The notes: generated by a model not told the origin, from the letters alone. A stretch of 64,000 nucleotides of DNA from a virus (IMGVR_UViG_3300038443_000757:20614-84613); one strand, 5' to 3'; numbered from the stretch's first letter, positions 2,991-55,735 are shown. Made by a program: numbers and translations.

Positions 2991-3202
2991 TGAAACTTGG
3001 AGACGTTGTAAAGCATAAACGTTACGGCTACTATGGAACTGTAGAGTATTCTACATTTGGCTTTTCAATTCATACATGGAAAGATGGATATCTCACCAAG
3101 AGCCTTGGATTTGACGCTAGATATCTTTCTAAGCATTGGGAAGTCATTGAGCTTCCCGAAGGATGTAGGAAACATGAGAATGGTGGCATAGTGGATAATT
3201 AG
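2987..3202 (+). CDS. hypothetical protein
   Basis: ATGA overlap with the upstream gene; 71 aa. Confidence 0.45.
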   Translation: MMKLGDVVKHKRYGYYGTVEYSTFGFSIHTWKDGYLTKSLGFDARYLSKHWEVIELPEGCRKHENGGIVDN

Positions 3203-3364
3203 CGTTATGTTCCATTGATAAATAAAATAAATTATGATACGATTGTGGGTAAGAAGTCCTAGAGACTTTTTGCCCATATTTTTTTTACTTCAAAGTGTTA
3301 TAAAAAATGAATTTCGTGTATATACTATTATCATCAAAGAAAAAACTAAAAAGGAGATGTTGAA

Positions 3365-4168
3365 ATGATGACAAAAGTAAGCAAAGCAGAGTTCGAAGAA
3401 ACTCTTGGAAAGGTTCTTCAGGAAATCAAATTTGACAGGCACAAGGTAGAATCGGTAAAGGAAGAAATGTTCAAACACGGAGTTATGAGAGGTAAAGTTC
3501 AAAGAATTATCAATGGAACTGTCGGACTTGACAAACTTGACAATGAAGTGTTCTGTCTTCTGACAATAGCTGTTCACCATGTAACACAATTAATGATCAT
3601 CAATCCTTACGGATTTTTCTCAAAAGAAGAAATTGAAAAAGCGAAAAGCAGAATAAAGTCGAAAGATGTCGAAGTTGTCGAATATCCAATTGTTTTCAAA
3701 AATGTAATGCAGTCAAATGATAATGATTATGTGCTTCTTGAAAATGTGAAAACACTAATAAAACTTTACAACGCGAATTTGTTGAACTATAATTACGAAG
3801 TAACTAAGAATTATAAGTTTGAAAAGAATGTTGTTGGGAAAATGGTTAAAACGATTGACATCAATATGAGAGAAGTTAAAACAATTGCCAAGGATATCAT
3901 GGCGAATAAAGCAATTGTTGGACCAATTGTTGTAAATATACTACGTGATAGCTCAAATATTGCCTACAGCCCTCAACATAGAACACTGACAGTTAGCAAC
4001 GGAAAGATTGATATAATAAACGGAATTCACTATTTGAACGCTCTTGCATATGTTGTAGAAAGACAAAATGATTTTAACATGAAAGTTGAATTGGAAATAA
4101 AAAATTATAACTTGAATGAGATCAAAAGACTTTACAACATTCTCAAATTACAAGGGAGTGTCAACTAA
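3365..4168 (+). CDS. hypothetical protein with degenerate ParB/DGQHR-like motif
   Basis: RBS AAAGGAGATG. Motif SPQHRTLTVSNGKIDIINGIHYLNALAYV resembles a ParB/Srx-fold GxxHR box. Confidence 0.5.
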   Translation: MMTKVSKAEFEETLGKVLQEIKFDRHKVESVKEEMFKHGVMRGKVQRIINGTVGLDKLDNEVFCLLTIAVHHVTQLMIINPYGFFSKEEIEKAKSRIKSKDVEVVEYPIVFKNVMQSNDNDYVLLENVKTLIKLYNANLLNYNYEVTKNYKFEKNVVGKMVKTIDINMREVKTIAKDIMANKAIVGPIVVNILRDSSNIAYSPQHRTLTVSNGKIDIINGIHYLNALAYVVERQNDFNMKVELEIKNYNLNEIKRLYNILKLQGSVN

Positions 4169-5142
4169 TGGAGCTTTACAATGCAGATATCAAAGAATTG
4201 TTCTTAAATATGTATGAAAATGAAGATTCTAAATCAACCTACAAGAGAATATTCATTAAAAGTGCTGATACAGAGAGAGTTCTTGGCAAAGATTTAGCTG
4301 AATTCTCAAAGAGTGAAATAGAGGACTTTCTTTCAGATTTGGCACCATTGACAAGCGCCATATCTAGATCAAATGGCAGGATTGTAACATCTTATATATC
4401 TTGGTGCATTGATGCAGGATACAAGAAGGTTGTCATGAATCCATTGAAGCTTGTTGATTCAGAATGGTTTGACAAATTCGTTGACAAGTCTGTAAAGTTA
4501 TACTTCACTGAGAAAGAGATAACAGAGATTGAGCGATTCTGTGAGAATGCACAAGACGCAGTAATTATCAGACTATATTTCGAAGGTGTAGCGGGTAAAG
4601 ATTCTTGTGAAATCAGAAATCTAAACAAATTTGATGTTGACTTTAAAAACAACATCTTACATTTAAGAAATGAAAAAGGAATGCTCGCAAGAAGCATTGA
4701 AGTTTCTGACAGAACCATCAAATTGATCGAGGAAGCATTGAGTGAAAAAACTTACACAAAGAGAAATGGTCAAATGGAAGTCACTGAAAACATTAAAGAA
4801 TTTACAACATTAGTAGAAAATGATTATGTACTTCGTAACTCAGTTACCAAAACTGATAACTACAGTGGCGCTGTTCAATCTTCAGTTGTATACAGAAGAC
4901 TTAAAGTTATCAGTGAAACACTTGGTATTCCATACTTCACAGGAAAAAATATTCTTCGTTCAGGAATACTACACAGAGCAAAGGGGATGTTTCATAATAG
5001 AAAGTTTGATTATGAAAAGTTTAGACCACTTGCCGAAAGATTTAACATTAAAAATATTTATTCCGTTAAAGACTATTGCAACATTGAGACAATAGAAAGT
5101 CTTTATGAAGAAGATGAATATTGTGACGAATGCCGCACATAA
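4168..5142 (+). CDS. hypothetical protein, weak tyrosine-recombinase/integrase-like similarity
   Basis: TAATG overlap with the upstream gene. N-terminal SAM-like region; C-terminal LRSGILHRAK...Y patches like integrase box II. Followed by a terminator. Confidence 0.4.
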   Translation: MELYNADIKELFLNMYENEDSKSTYKRIFIKSADTERVLGKDLAEFSKSEIEDFLSDLAPLTSAISRSNGRIVTSYISWCIDAGYKKVVMNPLKLVDSEWFDKFVDKSVKLYFTEKEITEIERFCENAQDAVIIRLYFEGVAGKDSCEIRNLNKFDVDFKNNILHLRNEKGMLARSIEVSDRTIKLIEEALSEKTYTKRNGQMEVTENIKEFTTLVENDYVLRNSVTKTDNYSGAVQSSVVYRRLKVISETLGIPYFTGKNILRSGILHRAKGMFHNRKFDYEKFRPLAERFNIKNIYSVKDYCNIETIESLYEEDEYCDECRT

Positions 5143-7709: not shown

Positions 7710-9020
7710 ATGTATAATGCATATGTAACTAGAATCAAAAATATTCGTAAACATTCTAATGCTGATCGTCTTCAGGTGGCAACTGTGTTTGGCAATGATG
7801 TAATTGTTGGCCTGAATACACAAGAAGGTGATCTTGTAGTGTACTTCCCAACAGATGGAAAATTGGGTGAAGAGTTTGCCAAAGAAAATAAGCTTACACG
7901 TGAGCTTGGCGGATATTTGGACGATAACAAGAGACATGTAACGACTATCAAATTGCGTGGTGAGCGTTCGGACGGCCTTATTCTTGGGATTGAAAGCCTG
8001 AGCAAGTTCACTGATGTTAGCAAGCTAAAAGAAGGAGATACGATTAGTGTACTTGGAGGCGTAGAAATTTGTTCTAAATATGTACCTTATCGTAAACCAT
8101 CTAATCCTAATCCTTCTAGCAAAGTTAAGACTAAGAAGGCGGTTGAAGACAAAGAGTCTTTCCCTTTGTTCAAAGAACATAGTGATACAGCACAATTGGC
8201 TTATAACCTTGGTCAGTTTAAAGCTGGTGACGAGTGCGTTGTTACGCTTAAGATGCATGGAACTAGTCAACGCACTTCTTATACGATCAAAGAAGAAAAG
8301 GTAGAGCAAGGATTTCTTGCACGGTTGTTCAAGAGGAAAGATAAAATTAATACATCTTGGGATTACGTAACTGGAACACGTAGAGTCACGCTTAAGACGT
8401 TTGACAGTGGTTTCTACGGCTCCAACTCCTTCAGGCAACAATGGCACGATCTGTTCGTTGGAAAGCTCCACAAAGGGGAGAGTGTTTACTACGAGGTTGT
8501 AGGATACACAGACACAGGTAGTCTGATTATGGGTGAGTGTGATAACACGAAAACGAGAGATAAAGAGTTTATTAAGCAATACGGCAAAACTACACAATTC
8601 ACATATGGTTGCGAGTATGGTCAAAGTGATATTTATGTTTACCGTATGACTATGACGAATGAAGACGGTAATATTGTTGAATATCCTTGGCATCTTGTTA
8701 AAACTCGTTGTGAACAGATGGGTGTCAAGCACGTTCCAGAGCTTACAAAAGTTACATTTGGCAATTTAATTGGTGGATTTGGAGATGCAGAAGAAGATGA
8801 ACGAAAAATGTTTATGCATGTTGTAAACCTCTATGCTGATGGGCCTGATCCAATTGGCAAAAGTCACATTAGGGAAGGCGTAATTGTCCGTATTGACAAC
8901 AAAGAGAAGTTTACAGCATTCAAACACAAGTCGTTTAATTTCAAAGTTTTAGAAGGATTAATTAAAGCTGATGCTGAAGCTCCTGACATGGAAGAAAATC
9001 AAGACCAAGTAGAAGAATAA
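7710..9020 (+). CDS. RNA ligase (Rnl2/Rnl5-like nucleotidyltransferase) with N-terminal OB-like domain
   Basis: Motif I LKMHGTS (KxHGT), motif III ESVYYEVVGY, motifs IV/V REGVIVRIDNKEKFTAFKHKSFNFK. Confidence 0.6.
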   Translation: MYNAYVTRIKNIRKHSNADRLQVATVFGNDVIVGLNTQEGDLVVYFPTDGKLGEEFAKENKLTRELGGYLDDNKRHVTTIKLRGERSDGLILGIESLSKFTDVSKLKEGDTISVLGGVEICSKYVPYRKPSNPNPSSKVKTKKAVEDKESFPLFKEHSDTAQLAYNLGQFKAGDECVVTLKMHGTSQRTSYTIKEEKVEQGFLARLFKRKDKINTSWDYVTGTRRVTLKTFDSGFYGSNSFRQQWHDLFVGKLHKGESVYYEVVGYTDTGSLIMGECDNTKTRDKEFIKQYGKTTQFTYGCEYGQSDIYVYRMTMTNEDGNIVEYPWHLVKTRCEQMGVKHVPELTKVTFGNLIGGFGDAEEDERKMFMHVVNLYADGPDPIGKSHIREGVIVRIDNKEKFTAFKHKSFNFKVLEGLIKADAEAPDMEENQDQVEE

Positions 9021-9907: not shown

Positions 9908-10123
9908 ATGAACAGAACACTTAAACAATTTTTAATTGGCTTTTCAATTATACTTATTGCATCTATTATTGCCGTTATTATATCTGAATATCCTAATATT
10001 TTTAGATGGATTCTTATGGCAATTTGTGTGGTTTTAGGCTCTTTTTTTACTGGAGCACTGGCTTTAGAATTGTATGACACATATAAATGGCATAAAGAAT
10101 GGAAGGGGAAGGAACGAAAATGA
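9908..10123 (+). CDS. small membrane protein
   Basis: GGAGG RBS; two TM helices. Confidence 0.5.
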   Translation: MNRTLKQFLIGFSIILIASIIAVIISEYPNIFRWILMAICVVLGSFFTGALALELYDTYKWHKEWKGKERK

Positions 10124-11106
10124 GTAAATTAATCGTTTCTGTTGGCTTGTGTGGTTCTGGAAAATCGACTTATGCAAGCAAACTAGAGAACACTGTAATT
10201 CTATCGTCTGATGAACTTCGTCTTGAGCTTTACGGAGACGTGAACGATCAAACGCATAATGACGAAGTATTCAAAGAGTTGCATAAACGAGCTAAAGATG
10301 CTCTTAAAGAAGGTAAAGATGTATTCTATGATGCAACAAATGTATCTGCAAAGCGTAGAAAGGCATTGGTAGATGAATTCAGATCGCATGTTGATAAACT
10401 AGTTGCAGTTTACTTTGATCTTCCATACGAAATCTGCTTGGAACGTAATGCGAAACGTGATAGAGTTGTACCAGAACGTGTCATTGAGCGTATGTATAAG
10501 ACTCTTCAAATTCCTACGTATTTAGAAGGATGGGATGATATTCAAGCAGTTTCTTACTATCAAGATGTGTTGCGTAAGCTTTATAGTAAAGAGGATTTGG
10601 AAGAAATTATTCTAAATTATGAAATGACACATGAAGAACTGTTTGGACTTCATTTGTTTCAAAGTGAAACATTTAGAAAGATTTATAACCTAGCACAAGA
10701 CAATAGTTTTCATTCGTTCAGTGTAAGTAGACACAGTTACTATGTTTGGAAAGATATTGTAGATAACTATATGACTTATGACGGATATGATAGACTTGTG
10801 CTGGTTTGGGCGGCATTGTTCCATGATACAGGTAAATATTTCTGTAAAGAATTTACAGATGGCAAACGATATGCAAGTTTCATTGGACATGAGAATGTTT
10901 CTTCGCAGTTAGCATTCAATACCCTTATGAGTCTCGGTTACTCTATTGACTTTGTTCTTGATGTTGTTGACATTGTACAGAATCATATGAAACTCTTATC
11001 AATTGGCGATTCTAGTAAAGGTAAGAAAAAATTGCTTGACTTTGTAGGAGAGCCAGTATATAATATGCTTGTACGATTCAAAGAAGCCGATACAAATGCT
11101 AAATAA
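10120..11106 (+). CDS. polynucleotide kinase-like P-loop kinase fused to HD-domain phosphohydrolase
   Basis: Walker A GLCGSGKST, DATN Walker B of the PNK/Zeta type. C-terminal H...HD...H...D (SRHSY, LFHDTGK, GHEN, EADT). Confidence 0.65.
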   Translation: MSKLIVSVGLCGSGKSTYASKLENTVILSSDELRLELYGDVNDQTHNDEVFKELHKRAKDALKEGKDVFYDATNVSAKRRKALVDEFRSHVDKLVAVYFDLPYEICLERNAKRDRVVPERVIERMYKTLQIPTYLEGWDDIQAVSYYQDVLRKLYSKEDLEEIILNYEMTHEELFGLHLFQSETFRKIYNLAQDNSFHSFSVSRHSYYVWKDIVDNYMTYDGYDRLVLVWAALFHDTGKYFCKEFTDGKRYASFIGHENVSSQLAFNTLMSLGYSIDFVLDVVDIVQNHMKLLSIGDSSKGKKKLLDFVGEPVYNMLVRFKEADTNAK

Positions 11107-36303: not shown

Positions 36304-36332
36304 TTGACAGATGCAAGAATAAATGATATAAT
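36304..36332 (+). promoter_or_regulatory. class-A phage promoter (TTGACA-ga-TGCAAGAATAAATG-a-TATAAT)
   Basis: Spacer box conserved. Confidence 0.6.
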
Positions 36333-36414
36333 AACTTATGTAATTGAGAAACAAAGAAAGCGCTTTCATAAGCTTATCTTATATAAACCACATACTAAAG
36401 GAGATGCATTTAAC

Positions 36415-37065
36415 ATGGCTAAACGCTACTACAAATTGCAAGAAACGATCTGGATCAAAGAACTTAAGAAAACTGGTGTTGTTCAAAAACTTGACATTCC
36501 TAACCTTCAAGCAGAAGTTACTTATGTTGCAAGCCGCGAAGGTGGCAATACGGTAATTAATCGTCAAACATTCAAATTTGAACAGATTGACAAGCTGAAG
36601 CGTAAAGATGAGGTAGCTAAGACTGATGAGAAACCGCTTACAATTCTCGTTAAATACTTTGATGGGGACTCAGAAGAAATTACGAAAATTCCTAATGGAG
36701 ACTGGATTGATCTTCGTTCTGCTGTGTCAATGGAATATAAAGCAGGAGAATCTATTAAATTACCTCTTGGAGTTGCGATGTCTCTTCCATTCACTTACGA
36801 AGCCCATGTTGCTCCGCGTGGTAGCACATTTAAGAATTACGGAGTTATTCAAACAAACTCTGTTGGTATTGTAGATGAGAGTTATAAAGGGCCAGATGAT
36901 CAATGGTTCTTGCCATTGTACGCATTGCGCGATGGAAAGATTGAGAAAGGTGATCGCGTTTGTCAATTCCGTATTATGAAGAAAATGGAAAAAGTTAACC
37001 TTGTTAGAGTAGAAGAACTGAAGAGTCCTAATAGAAATGGTTATGGCTCTACTGGAACAAAATAA
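36415..37065 (+). CDS. dut: dUTP pyrophosphatase (dUTPase) with N-terminal extension
   Basis: Motif II APRGST, motif [15 protein letters not shown], and C-terminal RNGYGSTG motif V. ORF-track start 36304 trimmed to the ATG after GGAGATG. Confidence 0.7.
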
Positions 37066-37791
37066 ATGAAGGAAATAGAAACAAAGAAAGGATATGTACT
37101 CGTAGATGACCATGTTTATGAGTACATATCTCAATGGAGATGGCAAATAGGTAAAAACGGCTATGCTTGCAGAGACTTTTATGAAAGAGGAAAAAGAAAA
37201 ACAGTAAACTTGCATAGACTTATTTGGGAAAAATTTGTTGGTACAATTTCTGACGGCCTTTATGTAGATCATATTAATAGGGATAGGCTAGATAATACGT
37301 TAGATAATTTAAGACTTGTGACTCCTCATCAAAACAGTCTGAATTCTAGCAAGCAATCAAACAACTTGTCTTCTAAATATAAAGGTGTAACAAAAAATAA
37401 GCAAACTGGTAATTGGGTAGCCTATATAACAAAGCACAAGAAAAGGAATTGTATTGGCTCCTTTACAAATGAAGAAGCCGCCGCCAATGCCTACAACTAT
37501 CATGCAGAAAAAGAATTTGGAGATTTTTCTAGTCTTAATGAAGTTGAAATTGTGATGAGTTACAGTGAGTGGAATAAATTTATGTTACCAAAAAGAGGTT
37601 TAAATAATTACTCTGGCATATCTTTTAGAAAAGATAATGGCAAATGGAGGGTTTTATTGTACGATCTTCAAAAAAATAAAATCAATGTTGGTCATTATAA
37701 CTCTGAAAGAGAAGCATTGATTGCAAGAAATAATTATGTAACAAATCATCTAGAGCTTGCTGATAAATATCCAATTGAAGAGTATGAGTAA
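37066..37791 (+). CDS. HNH homing endonuclease with AP2-type DNA-binding repeats
   Basis: YVDHINRDRLDNTLDNLRLVTPHQN (HNH_3); YKGV...GNWVA and SGISFRKDNGKWRV AP2-like repeats. Confidence 0.8.
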   Translation: MKEIETKKGYVLVDDHVYEYISQWRWQIGKNGYACRDFYERGKRKTVNLHRLIWEKFVGTISDGLYVDHINRDRLDNTLDNLRLVTPHQNSLNSSKQSNNLSSKYKGVTKNKQTGNWVAYITKHKKRNCIGSFTNEEAAANAYNYHAEKEFGDFSSLNEVEIVMSYSEWNKFMLPKRGLNNYSGISFRKDNGKWRVLLYDLQKNKINVGHYNSEREALIARNNYVTNHLELADKYPIEEYE

Positions 37792-46483: not shown

Positions 46484-47863
46484 ATGTTAAAAGATTTATT
46501 TTCTAATCCTCTTATTTTGACTGATACGTACAATCTATCTCATCAATTTCTCAAGTTCAATAATGACTGGGAAGTTAGCCATGTTTATAATAGAAAGCGT
46601 CCAATGGTACTTTATGGGGTTTCTGAAGCTGTAAATCGTGTTCTTTCTATTAAAATTGAAATGTGGATGGTTGACGAAGCTGAACAATATGCAAAAGAAA
46701 AAAGTATGCCATTCCCAAGAGAGTTGTGGGAACGAGTTGTAAATGAATTCAATGGCTATGCACCAATCATGATTGAATCTCTTCCTGAAGGATCATATAT
46801 TCCTGCTGGTACACCATTCATGCAGATTCGTAATACCGTTGAAGGATTTGGCGAATTAAAGGATTGGTGGGAAGGTATTATTCTTCAAAATGCTTTTGCC
46901 TCTGGTTGCGCTACACGTGCATATGAAATGGCAAAGTATCTTAAAGACAACGATCTTCCAATGATTCGTTTTCATAGTTTTGGATGGCGTGGGCATCAAT
47001 GTCCAGAAAGTGGATATTGGGCTGGTACTGCTTGGAATCTATTCCTTGTAGGAACTGATGATTTCCATACTAAAAAGCATACACCAAAAGCCAAGATTGG
47101 TAGCATTCCTGCACTTGCACATAAGGTAACTCAGCAATTCGATAAAGAATATGATTGTTATATTCGTGCAATTGATTTTGCTGTCAATACGCCACTTCGA
47201 ACTGTGGCATTAGTTATTGATACTTATGATGCTAATCGTTTTATTAATCAGTATCTTATTGGCCTTGCTCGCTATGCACTTGACAAAGGTGTCCATATTG
47301 TTTGCCGTCCTGACAGTGGAGATGTTCTTGATCAAGCTATTGAGATTTACAAAGTATGTATTGAAAACAATCTTGCAAACGTCTCTGTGATCATTGGAGA
47401 AGGCATTACGTTTGAGGTGGTCAAAGCATATGATGCAAAGCTTAAAGATGCTGGAGTGCCATTGGCGTTCGTCTCTTATGGTATTGGTGCTGGATTCTAC
47501 AAGGACATTGACCGTGACTACCTTGGATTTGCAATGAAGGTTGCATTCTCTAATGGTAAGCCACGTATGAAATTTGGAATGACAGCGTTGAAGCGCAGTA
47601 TTCCCGGCAAGGTTTCTATCATTAAAAAAGACGGAGATTTGCTCGTCATTCCTGAAGGAAGTCTTATGTCCTATACGTACAATGATCTTTATGAGATTAT
47701 TTATGTTCATGATGACACTACTGAAGAGCCAATTATCAAAACAACTGAATGGAATGAAATTTATGATCGTGTTCAAGAAGTTGATGATCATCAAAAAGTA
47801 ATCTACATTTCTCAGGAAATTGAAAATATGATTGCTGAATTCAAAGAACAATATAAAGGGTGA
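46484..47863 (+). CDS. nadV: nicotinamide phosphoribosyltransferase (NAMPT/NadV)
   Basis: N-terminal NPLILTDTYNLSH (cf. NAMPT ..TDSYKVTH); about 460 aa type II PRTase. Confidence 0.8.
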   Translation: MLKDLFSNPLILTDTYNLSHQFLKFNNDWEVSHVYNRKRPMVLYGVSEAVNRVLSIKIEMWMVDEAEQYAKEKSMPFPRELWERVVNEFNGYAPIMIESLPEGSYIPAGTPFMQIRNTVEGFGELKDWWEGIILQNAFASGCATRAYEMAKYLKDNDLPMIRFHSFGWRGHQCPESGYWAGTAWNLFLVGTDDFHTKKHTPKAKIGSIPALAHKVTQQFDKEYDCYIRAIDFAVNTPLRTVALVIDTYDANRFINQYLIGLARYALDKGVHIVCRPDSGDVLDQAIEIYKVCIENNLANVSVIIGEGITFEVVKAYDAKLKDAGVPLAFVSYGIGAGFYKDIDRDYLGFAMKVAFSNGKPRMKFGMTALKRSIPGKVSIIKKDGDLLVIPEGSLMSYTYNDLYEIIYVHDDTTEEPIIKTTEWNEIYDRVQEVDDHQKVIYISQEIENMIAEFKEQYKG

Positions 47864-47868
47864 TATGT

Positions 47869-48642
47869 ATGGAAATGAATATGAACAATAAAGATGCAAA
47901 TGGAGATATTATTAGCGCAACACCGCCTAGGCCTTGGACAATTGGCGATCCTCCACCATATAATCATGAAAAAAATAACACAATCTGGACTGGGCCATCA
48001 ACTTTCCCATATCTTACACCTATGCCTAAAAAACCATTTAAATTTGGTTTTTTGCTTGGACGATTCCAGCATATTCATATTGGTCATGAACAAATGATTG
48101 ATAGAGCGCTTGATGTTTGCGAGAAGGTTTTGGTCATTGTTGGCTCTGCACAAGATGATGCACGAATTACCAATCCAATTCGCAATCCGTTTGAAACTCA
48201 TTTTCGCATTAGGCTTATCAATGAGATTTATAAAGACAAGCCAAATCTCTTTGTAACGTCTATGCCTGATTTGACTCACGAAAATGATCATAGCTGGGCA
48301 TGGGGCAACTTTGTTCTTCAAAATGTTGCACTGCGAGCTAATCAGTATGATATCAAAGAAAGTCCTGATATTATGGTTTTTGGTAATGACGAAGAAAGAA
48401 TGTCGTGGTTTAATCCAGACGATATCAAGACAGTTAATCAACTGATTGTTGCGCGTGGAAACATTGACATTAGTGCTACTCAAATGCGCAATTATCTTGT
48501 TGAAAATAATTTTTGGAAATGGCGGCAGTATGTAAACTTGAAACTTTCACCATTGTTCCCTGTAATTCGTGAAGAACTTTTCAAAGTAGAACACTACAGA
48601 AAGTTGGCTGAAGAAAATGGAACAATCAATGCCCACAAGTAA
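47869..48642 (+). CDS. nicotinamide-nucleotide adenylyltransferase (NadM/NatV-type)
   Basis: GFLLGRFQHIHIGHEQMI (HxGH nucleotidyltransferase motif); ISATQMR C-terminal motif. Confidence 0.75.
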   Translation: MEMNMNNKDANGDIISATPPRPWTIGDPPPYNHEKNNTIWTGPSTFPYLTPMPKKPFKFGFLLGRFQHIHIGHEQMIDRALDVCEKVLVIVGSAQDDARITNPIRNPFETHFRIRLINEIYKDKPNLFVTSMPDLTHENDHSWAWGNFVLQNVALRANQYDIKESPDIMVFGNDEERMSWFNPDDIKTVNQLIVARGNIDISATQMRNYLVENNFWKWRQYVNLKLSPLFPVIREELFKVEHYRKLAEENGTINAHK

Positions 48643-51232: not shown

Positions 51233-53539
51233 ATGGAATTAAATGTAATTGATAATTGTGCTTGTTGTGCAACTGAAGATGGATTTGTAAATCTCCATTT
51301 ACACACAGCATATTCGCTTCTCGATGCACTTAGTAAGCCAGAAGATATTATAGCAAAAGTAAAAGGTTTAAATCAAAGAGGATTTGCTTGTACGGAACAC
51401 GGCAACGTTCATAGTTCTGTAAAAGCTTATAAATTGGCTAAAGAAAATTCTTTGAAGTTTATTTATGGATTAGAGGCATATATCACTGAAGATAGATTTA
51501 TCAAAGATAAAACAAATAAATACTATCATCTAACTATCCTAGCAAAAAATGAACAGGGTAGACAGAACATCAATAAGCTTGTAACAATCTCCAATCTTGA
51601 AGGATTTTATTTTAAACCTCGTATTGACTTTAAATTGCTTGAAGAATTTGGTGATGGCTTAATCATCATGTCAGGATGTATGGCCTCTGAATTGCAACAA
51701 GCATTAGCTGGAGGAAAGATTGGTAATGGTGATGTTGAAATAACATCTGGCAACATTGAGAGAGCCAAAGAAATTGCAAGACGTTATCGTAATGCATTTG
51801 GTGAGGATTATTATCTTGAAGTTCAATCACACAGAGATAAGCGTCAACAGCAATTAAATCGTGCGATAGTTGACATTGCAAAAGACTTAGGCATTCAATG
51901 GGTTGCTACTGCTGACAGTCATTTTGTCAATGAAGAAGATTTAGATTTGCACAGGGTTTTCATTGGTATCAACCGTAACAAAGACGATTTTGAATCTGAC
52001 GAAACATATCAAGACACACAGATTCAAAGTGAAAAAGAGGCATGGAATCTTCTTATGTCTTTGACTGAAGATGAGCGTAATGTTGCAATTAGGAATACTC
52101 TGAACATAATGGATAAATGCAATGCTCCATTGCCACTTTCAGCACCTTTAATTCCTCATGTTAAAGTTCCAGAAGGTTTTGAAACTGAGGAAGATTACTT
52201 GCAACATTTGTGTAACGAGGGATGGAAGTTTAGGAAGATTGGATATAAATCAAAGAAGCTTCAACAAGAATATAGGGACAGACTTATTTATGAATTTAAT
52301 GCGATCAAGGATATGGGATTCACAGGATACTATCTCCTTGTTTATGGATACGCAACATCTGTTCGCAGAAGAGGTATTGCACGTGGTTCTGGTGGAGGTT
52401 CGCTTGTAGCTTATCTGATTAATATTGTAGATATTGATCCAATTGAACATGGATTGTATTTTGAGCGCTTTATTGATGTTGCCCAACTTGATTTAATCAA
52501 GAGTGGAGAGCTTAAGCCTGAAGAGATTAAAATACCAGATTTTGATTTGGATTTCGGCACAAAAGAACGCGATCTTGTCTATAACAATATCGTTACTGAA
52601 CATGGGTATGAGCATGTTGTAGCTCTTGGTCAATTTGGTTACATCTGGACCAAGAGCGCTATCAAGGATGTTGGTAGAGTGCTTGGAGTGCCATTTGAAG
52701 TAACGAATGAGATAACGAAGCTACTAGGAGAGGATACGATTGCAGAAGGGCTTACAAGTGGCATTCTGAAGCCCTATCAGCGTCAATATCCAAGACTGTT
52801 TGAGTATGCAATGAAACTAGAAGGATTACCCCGCTCATATGGAATGCATCCATGCGGTAAGGTAGTAACGATTGATCCTGCTGTTTATTATACAGGATTA
52901 TCACAGAAGGAAGGTCAGCTTGTCTTACAAGTTGACATGAAAGATGCAGAAGCACTTGGTTTAGTTAAGGTAGATTTACTTGGACTTCGTACAGTTGATG
53001 TAATCTATGACACACTAGATATGATTGGCAAGGACACTGAATATATCCGTAACATCACATACGATTGTGCTGAGATGTTAGAAATCTTTAAAAATGGATT
53101 TACTGACGGAGTTTTCCAGTTCGAGAGCGAAGGTATGAAGCAAACATTGATAAATATGATTCCTACCCATTTAGATGATCTAGGAGTTGTAAATGCTCTG
53201 TATAGGCCAGGAAGTTTGAAATATATCAAAAACTACATTGATAGGAAGCACGGAAGAGAACAATTTGAATATCTTCACCCTGATCTTGAACGTATTCTTA
53301 AAATCTCTTATGGCATTATTGTATATCAAGAACAACTGATTGAGATTGGACGAATGGCTGGCATGCGTAATCCAGACCTTTTACGTCAAGCTACAGGTAA
53401 AAAAGATATGAAGAAACTTGCGAAAGCTGAGCCTGAACTTCGTGATGGCTTGTACAAAAGAGGTTGGACAAAGGAGCAGGTAGATCAATTGTGGGAAGAT
53501 ATGCTGAACTTCGCCAAATATTCATTTAATAAAGCCCAT
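51233..53539 (+). CDS. dnaE: DNA polymerase III alpha (DnaE-type) exon 1: PHP domain, palm and fingers up to FNKAH
   Basis: PHP motif VNLHLHTAYSLLDAL; ends in the conserved YSFNKAH fingers motif. The 3' boundary is inferred. Confidence 0.7.
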
Positions 53540-53714
53540 AAAATGTGTGTGGCTTAGTGTGGCGACATACTAAGAAAATCCTTCTAATTGCGGGGAACTC
53601 CTAAAGACTTCAATACCAACTTAATATGGTGACATGATTAAGGGCGTTGCTAACTACAACGATATGGTAAAAAGTTGAAGTATAAATAATATGGACAATC
53701 CGCATCGAGACTTC

Positions 53715-53743
53715 TTGAAATAATTTACATCCCATGATACAAT
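53715..53743 (+). promoter_or_regulatory. promoter for intron ORF (TTGAAA-17-TACAAT)
   Basis: Inside the intron, upstream of the AAAGGAGG RBS of the HEG. Confidence 0.4.
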
Positions 53744-53766
53744 AGAAAGAAAGGAGGTTATAAATT

Positions 53767-54771
53767 ATGGCAAAAAAATATACTCAAAAACAAAAAGAAC
53801 TTATTTTAAAATTATATCAAGAGGCACAAGACTTGGATGAGGCTATATTAAGATTAAAAGAACAAGGAATAGTCATGACTAGGCAGGCAATGGCTGATAT
53901 GGCTCACGATAATGGTATAAAAAGAAAAAGAATTTATACAAAACAAAACAAATTATCAGTCATAGAGATAAGGCAATTAGTTTCAGATTATGAGTCTGGT
54001 ATTTTTACTATGGAAGAATTGATAAAAAAGTATGGTTTTAAAACAAGAAAATCAATAACAGATAAAGTTAAACTTTATAATGGCAAAATGAGAACGCAAG
54101 ATGAAGCTAATAAAATGAGAAAAACTTATGAAGAAACAATGTTTAATAAGCTTGATGCGGAATGGAAAGCTTATATGGTTGGACTGCTTCTTACCGATGG
54201 TTATATTACCAATGATCAAATAGGACTTGATTTAACCGATGAAGATGCAATAAGTTATCTTGCAGAAATGACTGGAAAGGGTAATTACACGACAATTGTT
54301 GATAGTTGTAAAAGTAAAAAGGCAAAATATAGACTAACTCTTAATTCTAAAACAATTATAGATGATTTGACTAGATTTGGGGTTGTGCCAAGAAAATCTC
54401 TAACATTAAAGGGGCCGTTGCTCAATGAAGATGAAAGAAATTATATTCCACATATCTTTAAAGGAATTATTGATGGAGACGGCTGGATTAGAAGTGATGG
54501 CAAAGAATTTTTTATCGTTTCTGCTTCAAGAGATTTTCTTGAGTGGTGCATAAAAGAGTTAATTCTATTAGGAATGAGTAATTTAAAAATTACTCAAAAA
54601 ACATTTGATAATGAAAAGTGGAATGACTGTTTTCTTGTTAGGACTGCTCTTAAATCAAATATAACTATTTTAAAAGAGAAAATATACGTCTATGACTTAG
54701 GGATGGGTCGTAAACGTGAAAAATTATTTCAAGAAGGGCGTTCAGAGACTACCACAAGGAAATCTCAATAA
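53767..54771 (+). CDS. LAGLIDADG homing endonuclease (double-motif) with N-terminal helix-turn-helix region
   Basis: Two LAGLIDADG motifs: MVGLLLTDGYI and FKGIIDGDGWI. Confidence 0.8.
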   Translation: MAKKYTQKQKELILKLYQEAQDLDEAILRLKEQGIVMTRQAMADMAHDNGIKRKRIYTKQNKLSVIEIRQLVSDYESGIFTMEELIKKYGFKTRKSITDKVKLYNGKMRTQDEANKMRKTYEETMFNKLDAEWKAYMVGLLLTDGYITNDQIGLDLTDEDAISYLAEMTGKGNYTTIVDSCKSKKAKYRLTLNSKTIIDDLTRFGVVPRKSLTLKGPLLNEDERNYIPHIFKGIIDGDGWIRSDGKEFFIVSASRDFLEWCIKELILLGMSNLKITQKTFDNEKWNDCFLVRTALKSNITILKEKIYVYDLGMGRKREKLFQEGRSETTTRKSQ

Positions 54772-54844
54772 ACTTTGAGATTATGGTATAGTCCAGACCA
54801 CAACGTATATATAATGCGACTAAGGAAATCTTAGTGTGGTAAAG

Positions 54845-55735
54845 TCACAAGCTTATGCAATTATTGCAATGATCTGTGCATATCTGAAAGCATTCCACCC
54901 AACTGAGTTTATGTGTGCATGGCTTAACTCCTTAGTAGATCATCACGATAAAATTGAAACTGCTTTCAAAGAGGCTAAACGAATGGGAGTTAAAATAAAG
55001 CCATTAAATTTCAAAGATGCAAATGCTTTATGTAAAGTGGTTGATGGAGAGCTTGTCTACGGAATCTCTTTGATTAAACACTGTAACGCTCAGATTGCAG
55101 AAGATATTGCAAAGCTTCAGCCAGCAAATCGTTTTGTTGATATGATCATTCAAATCAAAGAACTTACTTCAATCAACTCTAAACAACTTGATATCCTTAT
55201 CAAACTTGATTTCTTCTCTGAGTATGGAAGCAAAGAACTATTGCTTACAATCCTTAAAGAAGTCAACGATGGCAAGAGCAGATATAACAAGACGCACAAG
55301 GAGGCAACTAAGCTCAAACGAATTGCGGCACTTCATGAATATGAGGACGAGCTTAGACAGGGACAAGTTGACTTGTCCATTAAACCATATGAACAAATTG
55401 CATTTGAACTTGATCATTATGGTTTCATCAAAACAACTTTTAAAGAAATTCCTAAAACAATACTAGCTGTAATGGATATCGACATGAAGCCTAAAACAGC
55501 TTATATTGCAGTTAAGTCATTCTGCTATAAAACTGGAGACACGTTTGAGTTCAGAGTCAAGAAGGATAAGTTTTATGGCAAAAAAGATATTGAATCTTTT
55601 GAAGTTGGAGATTCCATTAAGATCAAAAATCTTTCTGAAAAAGCTAGAGTACGTAAAGATGAAACTACTGGCAAATGGATTGAAACTGGAGTAAATGATT
55701 ATTATCTTGAGAAAGCAATAAAAATAAAACTATAA
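54845..55735 (+). CDS. dnaE: DNA polymerase III alpha (DnaE-type) exon 2: rest of fingers, HhH and C-terminal OB region
   Basis: SQAYAIIAMICAYLKAFHPTEFMCAWLNS aligns to DnaE ([25 protein letters not shown]). Confidence 0.65.
   Translation, partial: SQAYAIIAMICAYLKAFHPTEFMCAWLNSLVDHHDKIETAFKEAKRMGVKIKPLNFKDANALCKVVDGELVYGISLIKHCNAQIAEDIAKLQPANRFVDMIIQIKELTSINSKQLDILIKLDFFSEYGSKELLLTILKEVNDGKSRYNKTHKEATKLKRIAALHEYEDELRQGQVDLSIKPYEQIAFELDHYGFIKTTFKEIPKTILAVMDIDMKPKTAYIAVKSFCYKTGDTFEFRVKKDKFYGKKDIESFEVGDSIKIKNLSEKARVRKDETTGKWIETGVNDYYLEKAIKIKL

Follow-up and report, generated by a model that had tools for sequence, protein, structure and literature searches.

In the 64-kb stretch of viral DNA analyzed here (IMGVR_UViG_3300038443_000757:20614-84613, 64,000 nucleotides; hereafter the window, with positions counted from its first nucleotide), the gene of a DnaE-type DNA polymerase is divided by an insert. 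We hold with high confidence that this insert is a mobile group I intron with an endonuclease gene, located between the His and Ser codons of the motif YSFNKAH/S. The intron is very probably functional; its splicing, the activity and target of its endonuclease and the use of its promoter we infer from sequence.

The interrupted dnaE gene and its insertion point

The gene and its insert comprise the following parts:

51233..53539, +: dnaE exon 1, 769 codons, ending ..YSFNKAH; matches the Pfam PHP, DNA_pol3_alpha and finger domains and NCBIfam DnaE models
53540..54844, +: group I intron, 1305 nt, ending in the omega-G (54844); borders taken from the intron-less allele and the covarying core
54845..55735, +: dnaE exon 2, 296 codons plus stop, beginning SQAYAIIAM and carrying HHH_6

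The first open reading frame (ORF, 51233-53557) ends, as the first-pass annotation of this DNA had described, with the motif (..AKYSFNKAH) and then reaches a TAG stop, with five extra codons (KMCVA) in between. The downstream frame reads ..VVK|SQAYAIIAM from 54845 (SQAYAIIAMICAYLKAFHPTEF..) and encodes an HhH domain. If position 53539 is joined to 54845, a protein of 1065 aa results, which aligns to the DnaE of Brevibacillus phage Sundance without any gap across the junction and with 47% identity (FNKAHSQAYAIIA against FNKSHAVAYAIIA). This ligated protein comprises PHP, polymerase core, fingers and HhH, is colinear with intact homologues and thus qualifies as a DnaE.

Closely related DnaE genes without the intron exist. 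A protein search returned P0121, which shares 82% identity with the DnaE of the window and possesses an uninterrupted motif (FNKAHSQAYAIIAM; in the longer stretch ..FAKYSFNKAHSQAYAIIAMICAF..). The contig that encodes it, L166, aligns colinearly to the ligated exons for 1309 nt with 79% nucleotide identity (..AACAAAGCACAT|TCACAAGCTTATGC..) and runs through exactly the predicted junction FNKAH|SQAYAIIAM. Comparison with an intron-less homologue had been named beforehand as a check, and L166 defines the insertion point; together with the gapless Sundance alignment and P0121 it bears out the claim that a split DnaE gene picks up again exactly at H|S. Since neither the first nor the last base of the insert matches the adjoining exon base, its borders can be placed without ambiguity at 53540 and 54844, and in the comparison with L166 no duplicated target sequence was found at them. 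Directly 3' of the site 42 of 45 nt (54845-54889) are identical to L166 and directly 5' of it 38 of 45, at 79% overall. The raised identity 3' of the site could stem from the target of the endonuclease, from a co-conversion tract or from a strong constraint on the codons.

The group I ribozyme and its endonuclease gene

Failure of a group I core to fold had been put forward in advance as the outcome that would speak against an intron. Instead, a complete core was found and is backed by covariation. We based the structure on an alignment of the ORF-less versions of 25 homologous introns (A2; the window plus 24 relatives), in which helices were derived by eye and then counted. The elements in the window are:

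53536-40 (exon CCAU plus intron A) with 53548-52, +: P1, with U53539.G53549 at the 5' splice site
53544-53552, +: internal guide, GUGG (53549-52) for exon 1 and UGUG (53544-47) for exon 2 (P10)
53553-61 with 53566-74, +: P2 hairpin, 9 bp (CUUAGUGUG/CAUACUAAG), GNRA loop GCGA, -10.0 kcal/mol alone
53579-83 (UCCUU) with 54756-60 (AAGGA), +: P3, 5/5 pairs compensatory, 97.6% of cells paired
53589-93 with 53700-04, +: P4, in the region 53586..53704
53599-601 with 53693-95, +: P5, plus a P5a/b/c extension
within 53586..53704, +: P and Q elements, AAUUGCGGGGAA and AAUCCGCA
53706-07 (CG) with 54739-40, and 53711-26 (CUUCUUGAAAUAAUUU) with 54721-36, +: P6, with 16 perfect pairs in its second part
53706..53726 and 54721..54740, +: 5' and 3' strands of P6, with the ORF between them and the 3' strand inside the ORF; covarying
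54740..54751, +: R element GUUCAGAGACUA, J6/7 plus P7 5' strand, inside the ORF; invariant in 25 introns
G54745 and 54747-51 with 54789-94, +: P7, with A54746 bulged
54756..54760, +: P3 3' strand AAGGA, inside the ORF
54762-68 with 54775-81, +: P8 hairpin AUCUCAA/UUGAGAU, with the ORF stop UAA (54769-71) in its loop
54784..54794, +: S element UGGUAUAGUCC, J8/7 plus P7 3' strand (54789-94); invariant
54797-801 with 54836-40, +: P9, ACCAC/GUGGU, in the domain 54797..54840
54805-17, +: P9a, in the P9 domain
54819-24 with 54830-35, +: P9b, ACUAAG-GAAAU-CUUAGU, 5/6 pairs compensatory; the loop of the relatives is GAAA

Standard pairs fill 93.7% of the 1409 pair cells of the alignment, a value that drops to 33-47% if the 3' partners are slid by 1-3 columns, and compensatory change was counted in 39 of the 59 pairs. 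None of 500 shuffles reached the observed value on four of five measures, and a single one did so for further standard pair types. P7 shows no variation at all, compensatory support is given for P3, P4, P5, P6 and P8, and the classical P, Q, R and S elements could all be located. RNAalifold, applied blind to the same alignment, returned the same P3, P4, P5, P6, P8, P9, P9a and P9b. P9 covaries among the relatives as well (ACUAC/GUAGU, ACCGC/GCGGU, ACCCC/GGGGU).

The splice sites follow the same pattern. Guide and exon covary (GCCAU/GUGGC, GGCAU/GUGCC, GGACAU/GUGUCC), also in a group of relatives inserted at a second site (GGCUUU/GAAGCC, GGAUUU/GAAUCC). The last base of exon 1, U53539, is the U of the P1 U.G pair; all 18 relatives that can be aligned here possess this wobble, and the intron terminates in G. 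At the sequence level, the guanosine-binding site (G54747-C54793, G54745-C54794 and the bulged A54746) is invariant in the family, and the complementarity of the (U)CACA of exon 2 to UGUG 53544-47 would allow P10 to form. All invariant core positions of the intron family are intact in the window and every helix pairs. P7.1/P7.2, which would mark subgroup IA2, are absent between the P3 3' strand and P8 of the window, where a single nucleotide separates the two (54756-60 and 54762-81).

The endonuclease gene lies in the loop closed by P6 and is preceded by its own expression signals:

53767..54771, +: LAGLIDADG endonuclease ORF, 334 aa, with the Shine-Dalgarno sequence GGAGG (53753-57) 9 nt before its ATG (53767)
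53715..53743, +: sigma-70-like promoter candidate TTGAAA-17-(TG)-TACAAT, 10/12 plus TG, with the -35 inside the P6 5' strand

That the ORF encodes a double-motif LAGLIDADG protein, as initially proposed, is supported by both motifs, by Pfam and by profile and fold matches. The motifs are VGLLLTDG (D144, G145) and KGIIDGDG (D238, G239), and their D-G is invariant in 34 homologues. Pfam LAGLIDADG_3 (PF14528) matches with 25.8 bits at a cutoff of 22.5. A single-sequence phmmer search of the ORF against the PDB gave no match; the family profile retrieved I-Tsp061I (2DCH) from it with E = 8.6e-9. In the AlphaFold model (pLDDT 90.8) two three-helix bundles at the N-terminus precede the two-fold LAGLIDADG core, and the tail (residues 326-334) is disordered; Foldseek aligned the model with probability 1.00 to I-Tsp061I, I-SceI, I-DmoI and PI-SceI (VMA intein endonuclease domains). 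Judged by its predicted fold (alpha-beta-beta-alpha-beta-beta-alpha twice), the ORF product is a monomeric two-motif LAGLIDADG endonuclease. It shares the fold and both LAGLIDADG helices with I-Tsp061I, I-DmoI and I-SceI, but only 13-19% sequence identity, and it possesses about 130 additional N-terminal residues. Among solved structures these residues, which form the N-terminal bundles, gave no sequence match except a very weak one to a transposase helix-turn-helix subdomain (E = 0.8); the model predicts them to be helical modules of a DNA-binding type. By protein, it comes closest among phages to those proteins of Staphylococcus phages that are annotated as intron endonucleases, and its best phage relative is that of Dulem virus 36 (39% identity).

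ORF and ribozyme overlap. The final ~50 nt of the ORF constitute the P6 3' strand, J6/7, the P7 5' strand, the P3 3' strand and the P8 5' strand, with the stop codon in L8, and in relatives the ORF mostly ends 14-78 nt past the R element. Since the core-encoded tail (residues 326-334) is predicted to be disordered, it looks like a passenger of the RNA structure and not like a part of the enzyme. An alternative assignment, with the GGAGG of the ribosome-binding site (RBS) as P3 3' strand and the ORF in P8, was dropped: in relatives the R element, the P3 3' strand and P8 are situated within the 3' end of the ORF and beyond it. The same GGAGG (53753-57) is complementary to the P3 5' strand CCUUC (53580-84), and Dulem virus 36 shows the like (GGGAG, CUUCC). 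This weak complementarity is a candidate for RBS masking or for competition with P3, and it misled the Rfam alignment discussed below.

Of the promoter and RBS that had been ascribed to the insert, the RBS stands, given the spacing of GGAGG to the ATG, and the promoter is plausible but no feature of the family. The site at 53715-43 is the best scoring of the promoter-like sites in the region, yet these number 8 against 7.7 expected by shuffling, and it is strong in the window only, without conservation in relatives.

Assuming standard group I chemistry, the following life cycle can be proposed. The precursor mRNA would fold into P1-P9, with the end of exon 1 (..CCAU) paired to the guide GUGG (53549-52). 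An external guanosine would dock at the G-C pair of P7 and attack after U53539; the omega-G 54844 would then take the place of this guanosine, P10 (CACA with UGUG) would hold exon 2, and exon ligation would yield the mRNA for the 1065-aa DnaE (..FNKAH-SQAYAIIAM..). The 16-bp P6 helix would close a loop of ~1 kb around the endonuclease gene, which would be expressed from its strong Shine-Dalgarno sequence and possibly from its own promoter. A ribosome that completes the ORF would have to unfold the catalytic core. Because the tail of the ORF overlaps this core, translation and splicing of one and the same transcript should exclude each other. During co-infection the endonuclease would be expected to cut an intron-less dnaE near ..AAAGCNCAT|TCACAAGC.., and the break would be repaired with the intron-bearing genome as template, through which the intron would be acquired (homing). 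The intron-less sequence of L166, GCTAAATATTCGTTTAACAAAGCACATTCACAAGCTTATGCAATCATTGC, is the candidate cleavage target.

The repeated decamer and the alternatives to an active intron

The first-pass annotation had drawn attention to a decamer that is repeated just inside both ends of the insert. This word, CTTAGTGTGG, occurs exactly twice in the 64 kb, with 0.04 copies expected. Its second copy is located where it had been reported (54830-54839), while the first is found at 53553-53562, one base off the reported 53554-53563. For a shared word of at least 10 nt between the non-coding ends of the intron, 2000 dinucleotide shuffles gave P = 0.022. Copy 1 corresponds to the P2 5' strand plus the first loop base. 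The CTTAGT/ACTAAG hairpin to which it had been assigned does exist, but it is longer, with 9 bp (CUUAGUGUG/CAUACUAAG) and a GCGA tetraloop. Copy 2 corresponds to the P9b 3' strand plus four bases of the P9 3' strand. Neither of the two roles suggested for the decamer could be retained. It is not a P1/P10 guide, as the true guide (53544-53552) is established by homology with 24 relatives and by covariation, and it is not a homing-site duplication, as L166 reveals no repeat at the insertion point. A precise deletion between the decamers was considered too and rejected, as 28 nt would remain and the reading frame would be shifted. We conclude that the repetition arises as a by-product, since two helices (P2; P9b plus P9) have strand sequence in common.

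There are three copies of the word GUGUGG: one belongs to the guide (53547-52), one to P2 (53557-62) and one to P9 (54834-39). In relatives the P9 word is conserved within a covarying helix, whereas the P2 word is specific for the window. The second GUGUGGC, in the 5' decamer and P2, shows complementarity to G|UCACA at the 3' splice junction, but it lies on the wrong side of the guide for P10. None of the relatives keeps the decamer repeat; they mostly share only 5-8 nt, and where the common word is longer (at most 10 nt, in L087) it is an unrelated one, for instance of the ACCACAAC/AGACTACAAC type. In several introns of the insertion-site group to which the window belongs (L083, L004 and L087; group 1, see below), (A)ACCACAAC or AGACUACAAC stands in both the P5 extension and the P9 5' strand, where it could potentially serve as an alternative partner for the P9 3' strand.

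P2 (CUUAGUGUG-GCGA-CAUACUAAG) and ..GCGACUAAG-GAAAU-CUUAGUGUGG.. are circular permutations, and therefore the predicted minimum free energy (MFE) structure of the ORF-less window intron lacks P2, P9 and P9b. Without constraints, 53566-75 pairs with 54829-38 and 53558-63 with the omega-G plus UCACA (-97.0 kcal/mol). If the native P2, P9 and P9b are enforced, -93.1 kcal/mol results, and the long-range duplex alone accounts for -20.5 kcal/mol. The competing helix predicted in this way may have arisen by chance and be harmless, but it may also trap the folding, act as a switch or be left over from a duplication.

One might speculate that the decamer is functional: the P2 3' strand would pair with the 3' end of the intron (10 bp) and the second GUGUGGC with the omega-G plus UCACA (6 bp), either to sequester the 3' splice site by a conformational switch or to tether the ribozyme halves across the 1-kb ORF. 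The stability of the duplex and its place in the unconstrained MFE fit this idea, as do the low probability of the shared word and the MFE structures of the 24 relatives, which are mostly native at these helices (P9 is kept in 21, P9b in 20 and P2 in most of those that have one). We nevertheless regard such a function as unlikely. The repeat is conserved in no relative and the lineage of the window offers no sequence variation: variants in which covariation of the decamer might be followed were sought among the metagenomic contigs with this endonuclease, and none were found, all being 100% identical. Furthermore, the order of transcription favours local hairpins, the energy model omits the native pseudoknot and tertiary contacts, and the pseudo-guide follows the P1 guide on its 3' side, whereas a productive P10 would need the reverse order. 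That the repeat is a selected RNA switch which gates the second step of splicing or expression of the endonuclease (until translation of the ORF, for instance), or which tethers the halves, appears likewise improbable to us.

Several points weigh against an active intron. Splicing is deduced from the sequence. The metagenomic contigs mentioned above, which stem from several samples, are identical in sequence in 14 of 14 cases; therefore the lineage provides no population evidence. The window deviates in J7/3 from the family consensus (CCACA vs UAAUA), and its predicted MFE could mean that folding is impaired. Finally, a covariance-model search, also proposed at the outset, succeeded only in part: at the Rfam gathering threshold there was no match in the window, and with relaxed thresholds RF00028 scored 27.4 bits (gathering score 50, E = 1.4e-4). 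Because the core is interrupted by the 1-kb ORF, this alignment placed P7 and the P3 3' strand wrongly, at the RBS. A family member without an ORF likewise reaches only 27.4 bits with RF00028. A score below gathering says little here, as a single general model is insensitive to the dnaE intron family.

If the intron were dead or did not splice, DnaE would have to assemble from two separate chains, one of 774 aa with KMCVA at its end and one of 299 aa starting with the GTG at 54836, or the gene would be a pseudogene. A start of the second half at this GTG is conceivable, since AAGGA lies 9 nt upstream, and the misfolded P2, P9 and P9b of the predicted MFE and the atypical J7/3 point in the same direction. 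However, the invariant core positions are intact and all helices pair, and the ORF is intact with a confident model, unlike the decayed copies in some relatives. Moreover, the break falls inside the most conserved fingers motif, and an identical sequence in 14 contigs suggests a viable phage. Consequently, we consider a dead intron to be improbable and a functional group I intron to be the better account of the insert.

The universally conserved DnaE motif is also a target of DnaE inteins, and the C-extein of the split Ssp and Npu DnaE inteins starts with CFNK; intein papers checked for the CFN extein gave no match in their text, and PDB chain alignments run through CFN(KS), consistent with this start. 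The cyanobacterial split DnaE intein adjoins the motif that is interrupted in the window, related phage DnaEs carry an intein two codons upstream (FNK|C...N|SH), and fractured genes with split inteins and endonuclease genes have been described (PMC2677866). Yet the chance that the insert is an intein, or that split-intein halves surround a free-standing endonuclease gene, is negligible: a stop follows five codons after the junction, there is neither a Cys/Ser N-intein nor ..HN before SQAY nor any intein block, the ORF occupies a separate frame with its own Shine-Dalgarno sequence, and the non-coding flanks form a covarying group I core. The in-frame stop, the missing intein features, the separate ORF and the covarying core hence uphold the initial preference for an intron over an intein.

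A family of dnaE introns and its significance

The group I intron of the window is not an isolated case. Scans based on the endonuclease-homologue alignment led to ~160 loci, among which a profile of P3-P5 then marked 47 besides the window, the majority flanked by DnaE exons on either side. No fewer than 45 related introns reside at the H|S site or 12 nt upstream, both in phage DnaE and in the chromosomal dnaE genes of several Clostridium species. Group 1 introns follow the H of FNK[ASG]H and were found in the window, Dulem virus 36, IMG/VR contigs and genomes of Clostridium and Sarcina. Group 2 introns (~25 loci from IMG/VR and metagenome-assembled genomes, including L009-L027 and L088-L092) are inserted 12 nt upstream, after GY[GS]F, with a rematched guide. 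Both sites in GY(G/S)F|N(K)SH| carry related LAGLIDADG genes. The phage DnaE relatives P0135, P0161 and P0164 have an intein inserted precisely at the K|S boundary in FNK|SH, at a distance of 6 nt from either intron site.

Some members are hidden in existing annotations. Dulem virus 36 (PP511521, L001:1448-5344) has two coding sequences named 'polymerase/primase', which are exons of one DnaE-like gene (..YGFNKGH); its homologous intron sits at the same codon and its endonuclease gene is annotated as hypothetical. In Alicyclobacillus phage KKP_3916 (OQ846916, L167) DnaE is in at least three pieces, annotated as hypothetical only. The insertions there (359-692 and ~3197-3562) are one Rfam-positive group I intron (70.6 bits) and the ORF-less family member of 27.4 bits. 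In Clostridium massiliamazoniense (L085:252-6704) intron and endonuclease interrupt the chromosomal dnaE, downstream of which pfkA lies; the first half of this dnaE passes the NCBIfam DnaE equivalog score. L083, L084, L087 and L093 are alike. The interrupted Clostridium gene looks like the essential chromosomal dnaE and is not a prophage gene.

Two further loci deserve mention. The dnaE of Clostridiales oral taxon 876 (L083:679-2332) also contains, upstream of its group I intron, a group II intron that exceeds the thresholds of Rfam RF02004 and RF00029. In Paenibacillus macquariensis (L082:2700-4100) the closest named endonuclease homologue (48% identity) lies outside dnaE beside an integrase, with a decayed R element (GAUCAGAGAUUG) and without an S element; this resembles the remains of an intron or an endonuclease gene that has moved elsewhere.

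At the nucleotide level relatives are harder to recognize. A megablast of the whole locus against phage records gave no match, blastn of the 3' core gave a 27-nt match only, and the exact 21-mer of R and J7/3 of the window was not found in metagenome contigs. The exact 21-mer of P4/P5 occurs in seven viral contigs, which are other introns in other genes and not close relatives.

Compared with known systems, the intron of the window resembles those of T4 (td with I-TevI, nrdB, sunY), the I-HmuI intron in the DNA polymerase of SPO1 and SP82 and the introns of Twort, K and 812 in that it occupies a conserved site of a gene for replication or nucleotide metabolism. In contrast to these, its host gene is of the DnaE type (family C) and not PolA, td or nrd, and it lacks the P7.1/P7.2 of the IA2 introns of T4 and Twort. 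The intron endonucleases of Staphylococcus phages 812 and MSA6 share ~25% identity with that of the window. An ORF looped out from a peripheral helix and a sporadic spread, both seen here too, are common to phage group I introns (PMC3984707, PMC3073962), and according to the same reviews phage intron ORFs may have their own promoter and their translation may conflict with folding. While phage intron endonucleases are mostly of the GIY-YIG, HNH, PD-(D/E)xK or EDxHD type (PMC3984707), that of the window belongs to the LAGLIDADG type. Group I introns in which the endonuclease ORF overlaps the ribozyme core are a described class (PMC3984707, Fig. 2b legend); the ORF of the window starts in L6 and runs into the core, a trait common to the family. 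DnaE inteins, both the cyanobacterial split one and those of phages, aim at the same invariant Y(S/C)FNKSH motif, but they are in frame and removed at the protein level, whereas the element of the window contains in-frame stops and a separate ORF and would be removed as RNA.

In the full-text literature on group I introns together with dnaE or DNA polymerase III we found no description of a dnaE group I intron, within an incomplete coverage that yielded intein papers, IStron papers and reviews instead. As evidence for the novelty of a dnaE-specific family this negative result is weak. The type of element is well known, and the dnaE-specific intron family is previously unflagged and widespread.

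The interrupted gene belongs to the replication and nucleotide-metabolism module of a large phage, with ribonucleotide reductase, ThyA, RecJ, primase, NAD salvage and an RNA ligase with polynucleotide kinase. Rfam did not detect other introns in the window. A second gene of the homing-endonuclease type is present, a free-standing ORF with HNH_3 and AP2 domains (37066-37791, +), which starts one base after a dUTPase-like gene (36304-37065). The segments 4168-5142, 7710-9020, 10099-11106 and 46484-48642 encode an MrpR-like recombinase, an RNA ligase and a kinase/HD protein, which resemble a tRNA-repair pair, and a NAPRTase with a nucleotidyltransferase (NAD salvage).

Taken together, these results correct the annotation of phage and bacterial dnaE genes whose halves are listed as separate genes, as in Dulem virus 36 and KKP_3916. 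They furthermore mark Y(S/C)FNKSH as a hot spot of mobile-element insertion, with group I introns at two sites 12 nt apart, a phage intein between them and a split intein adjoining. The family with its two sites offers a compact natural model in which the retargeting of homing endonucleases and guides can be studied, and the intron-less allele represents a ready substrate for a new LAGLIDADG specificity.

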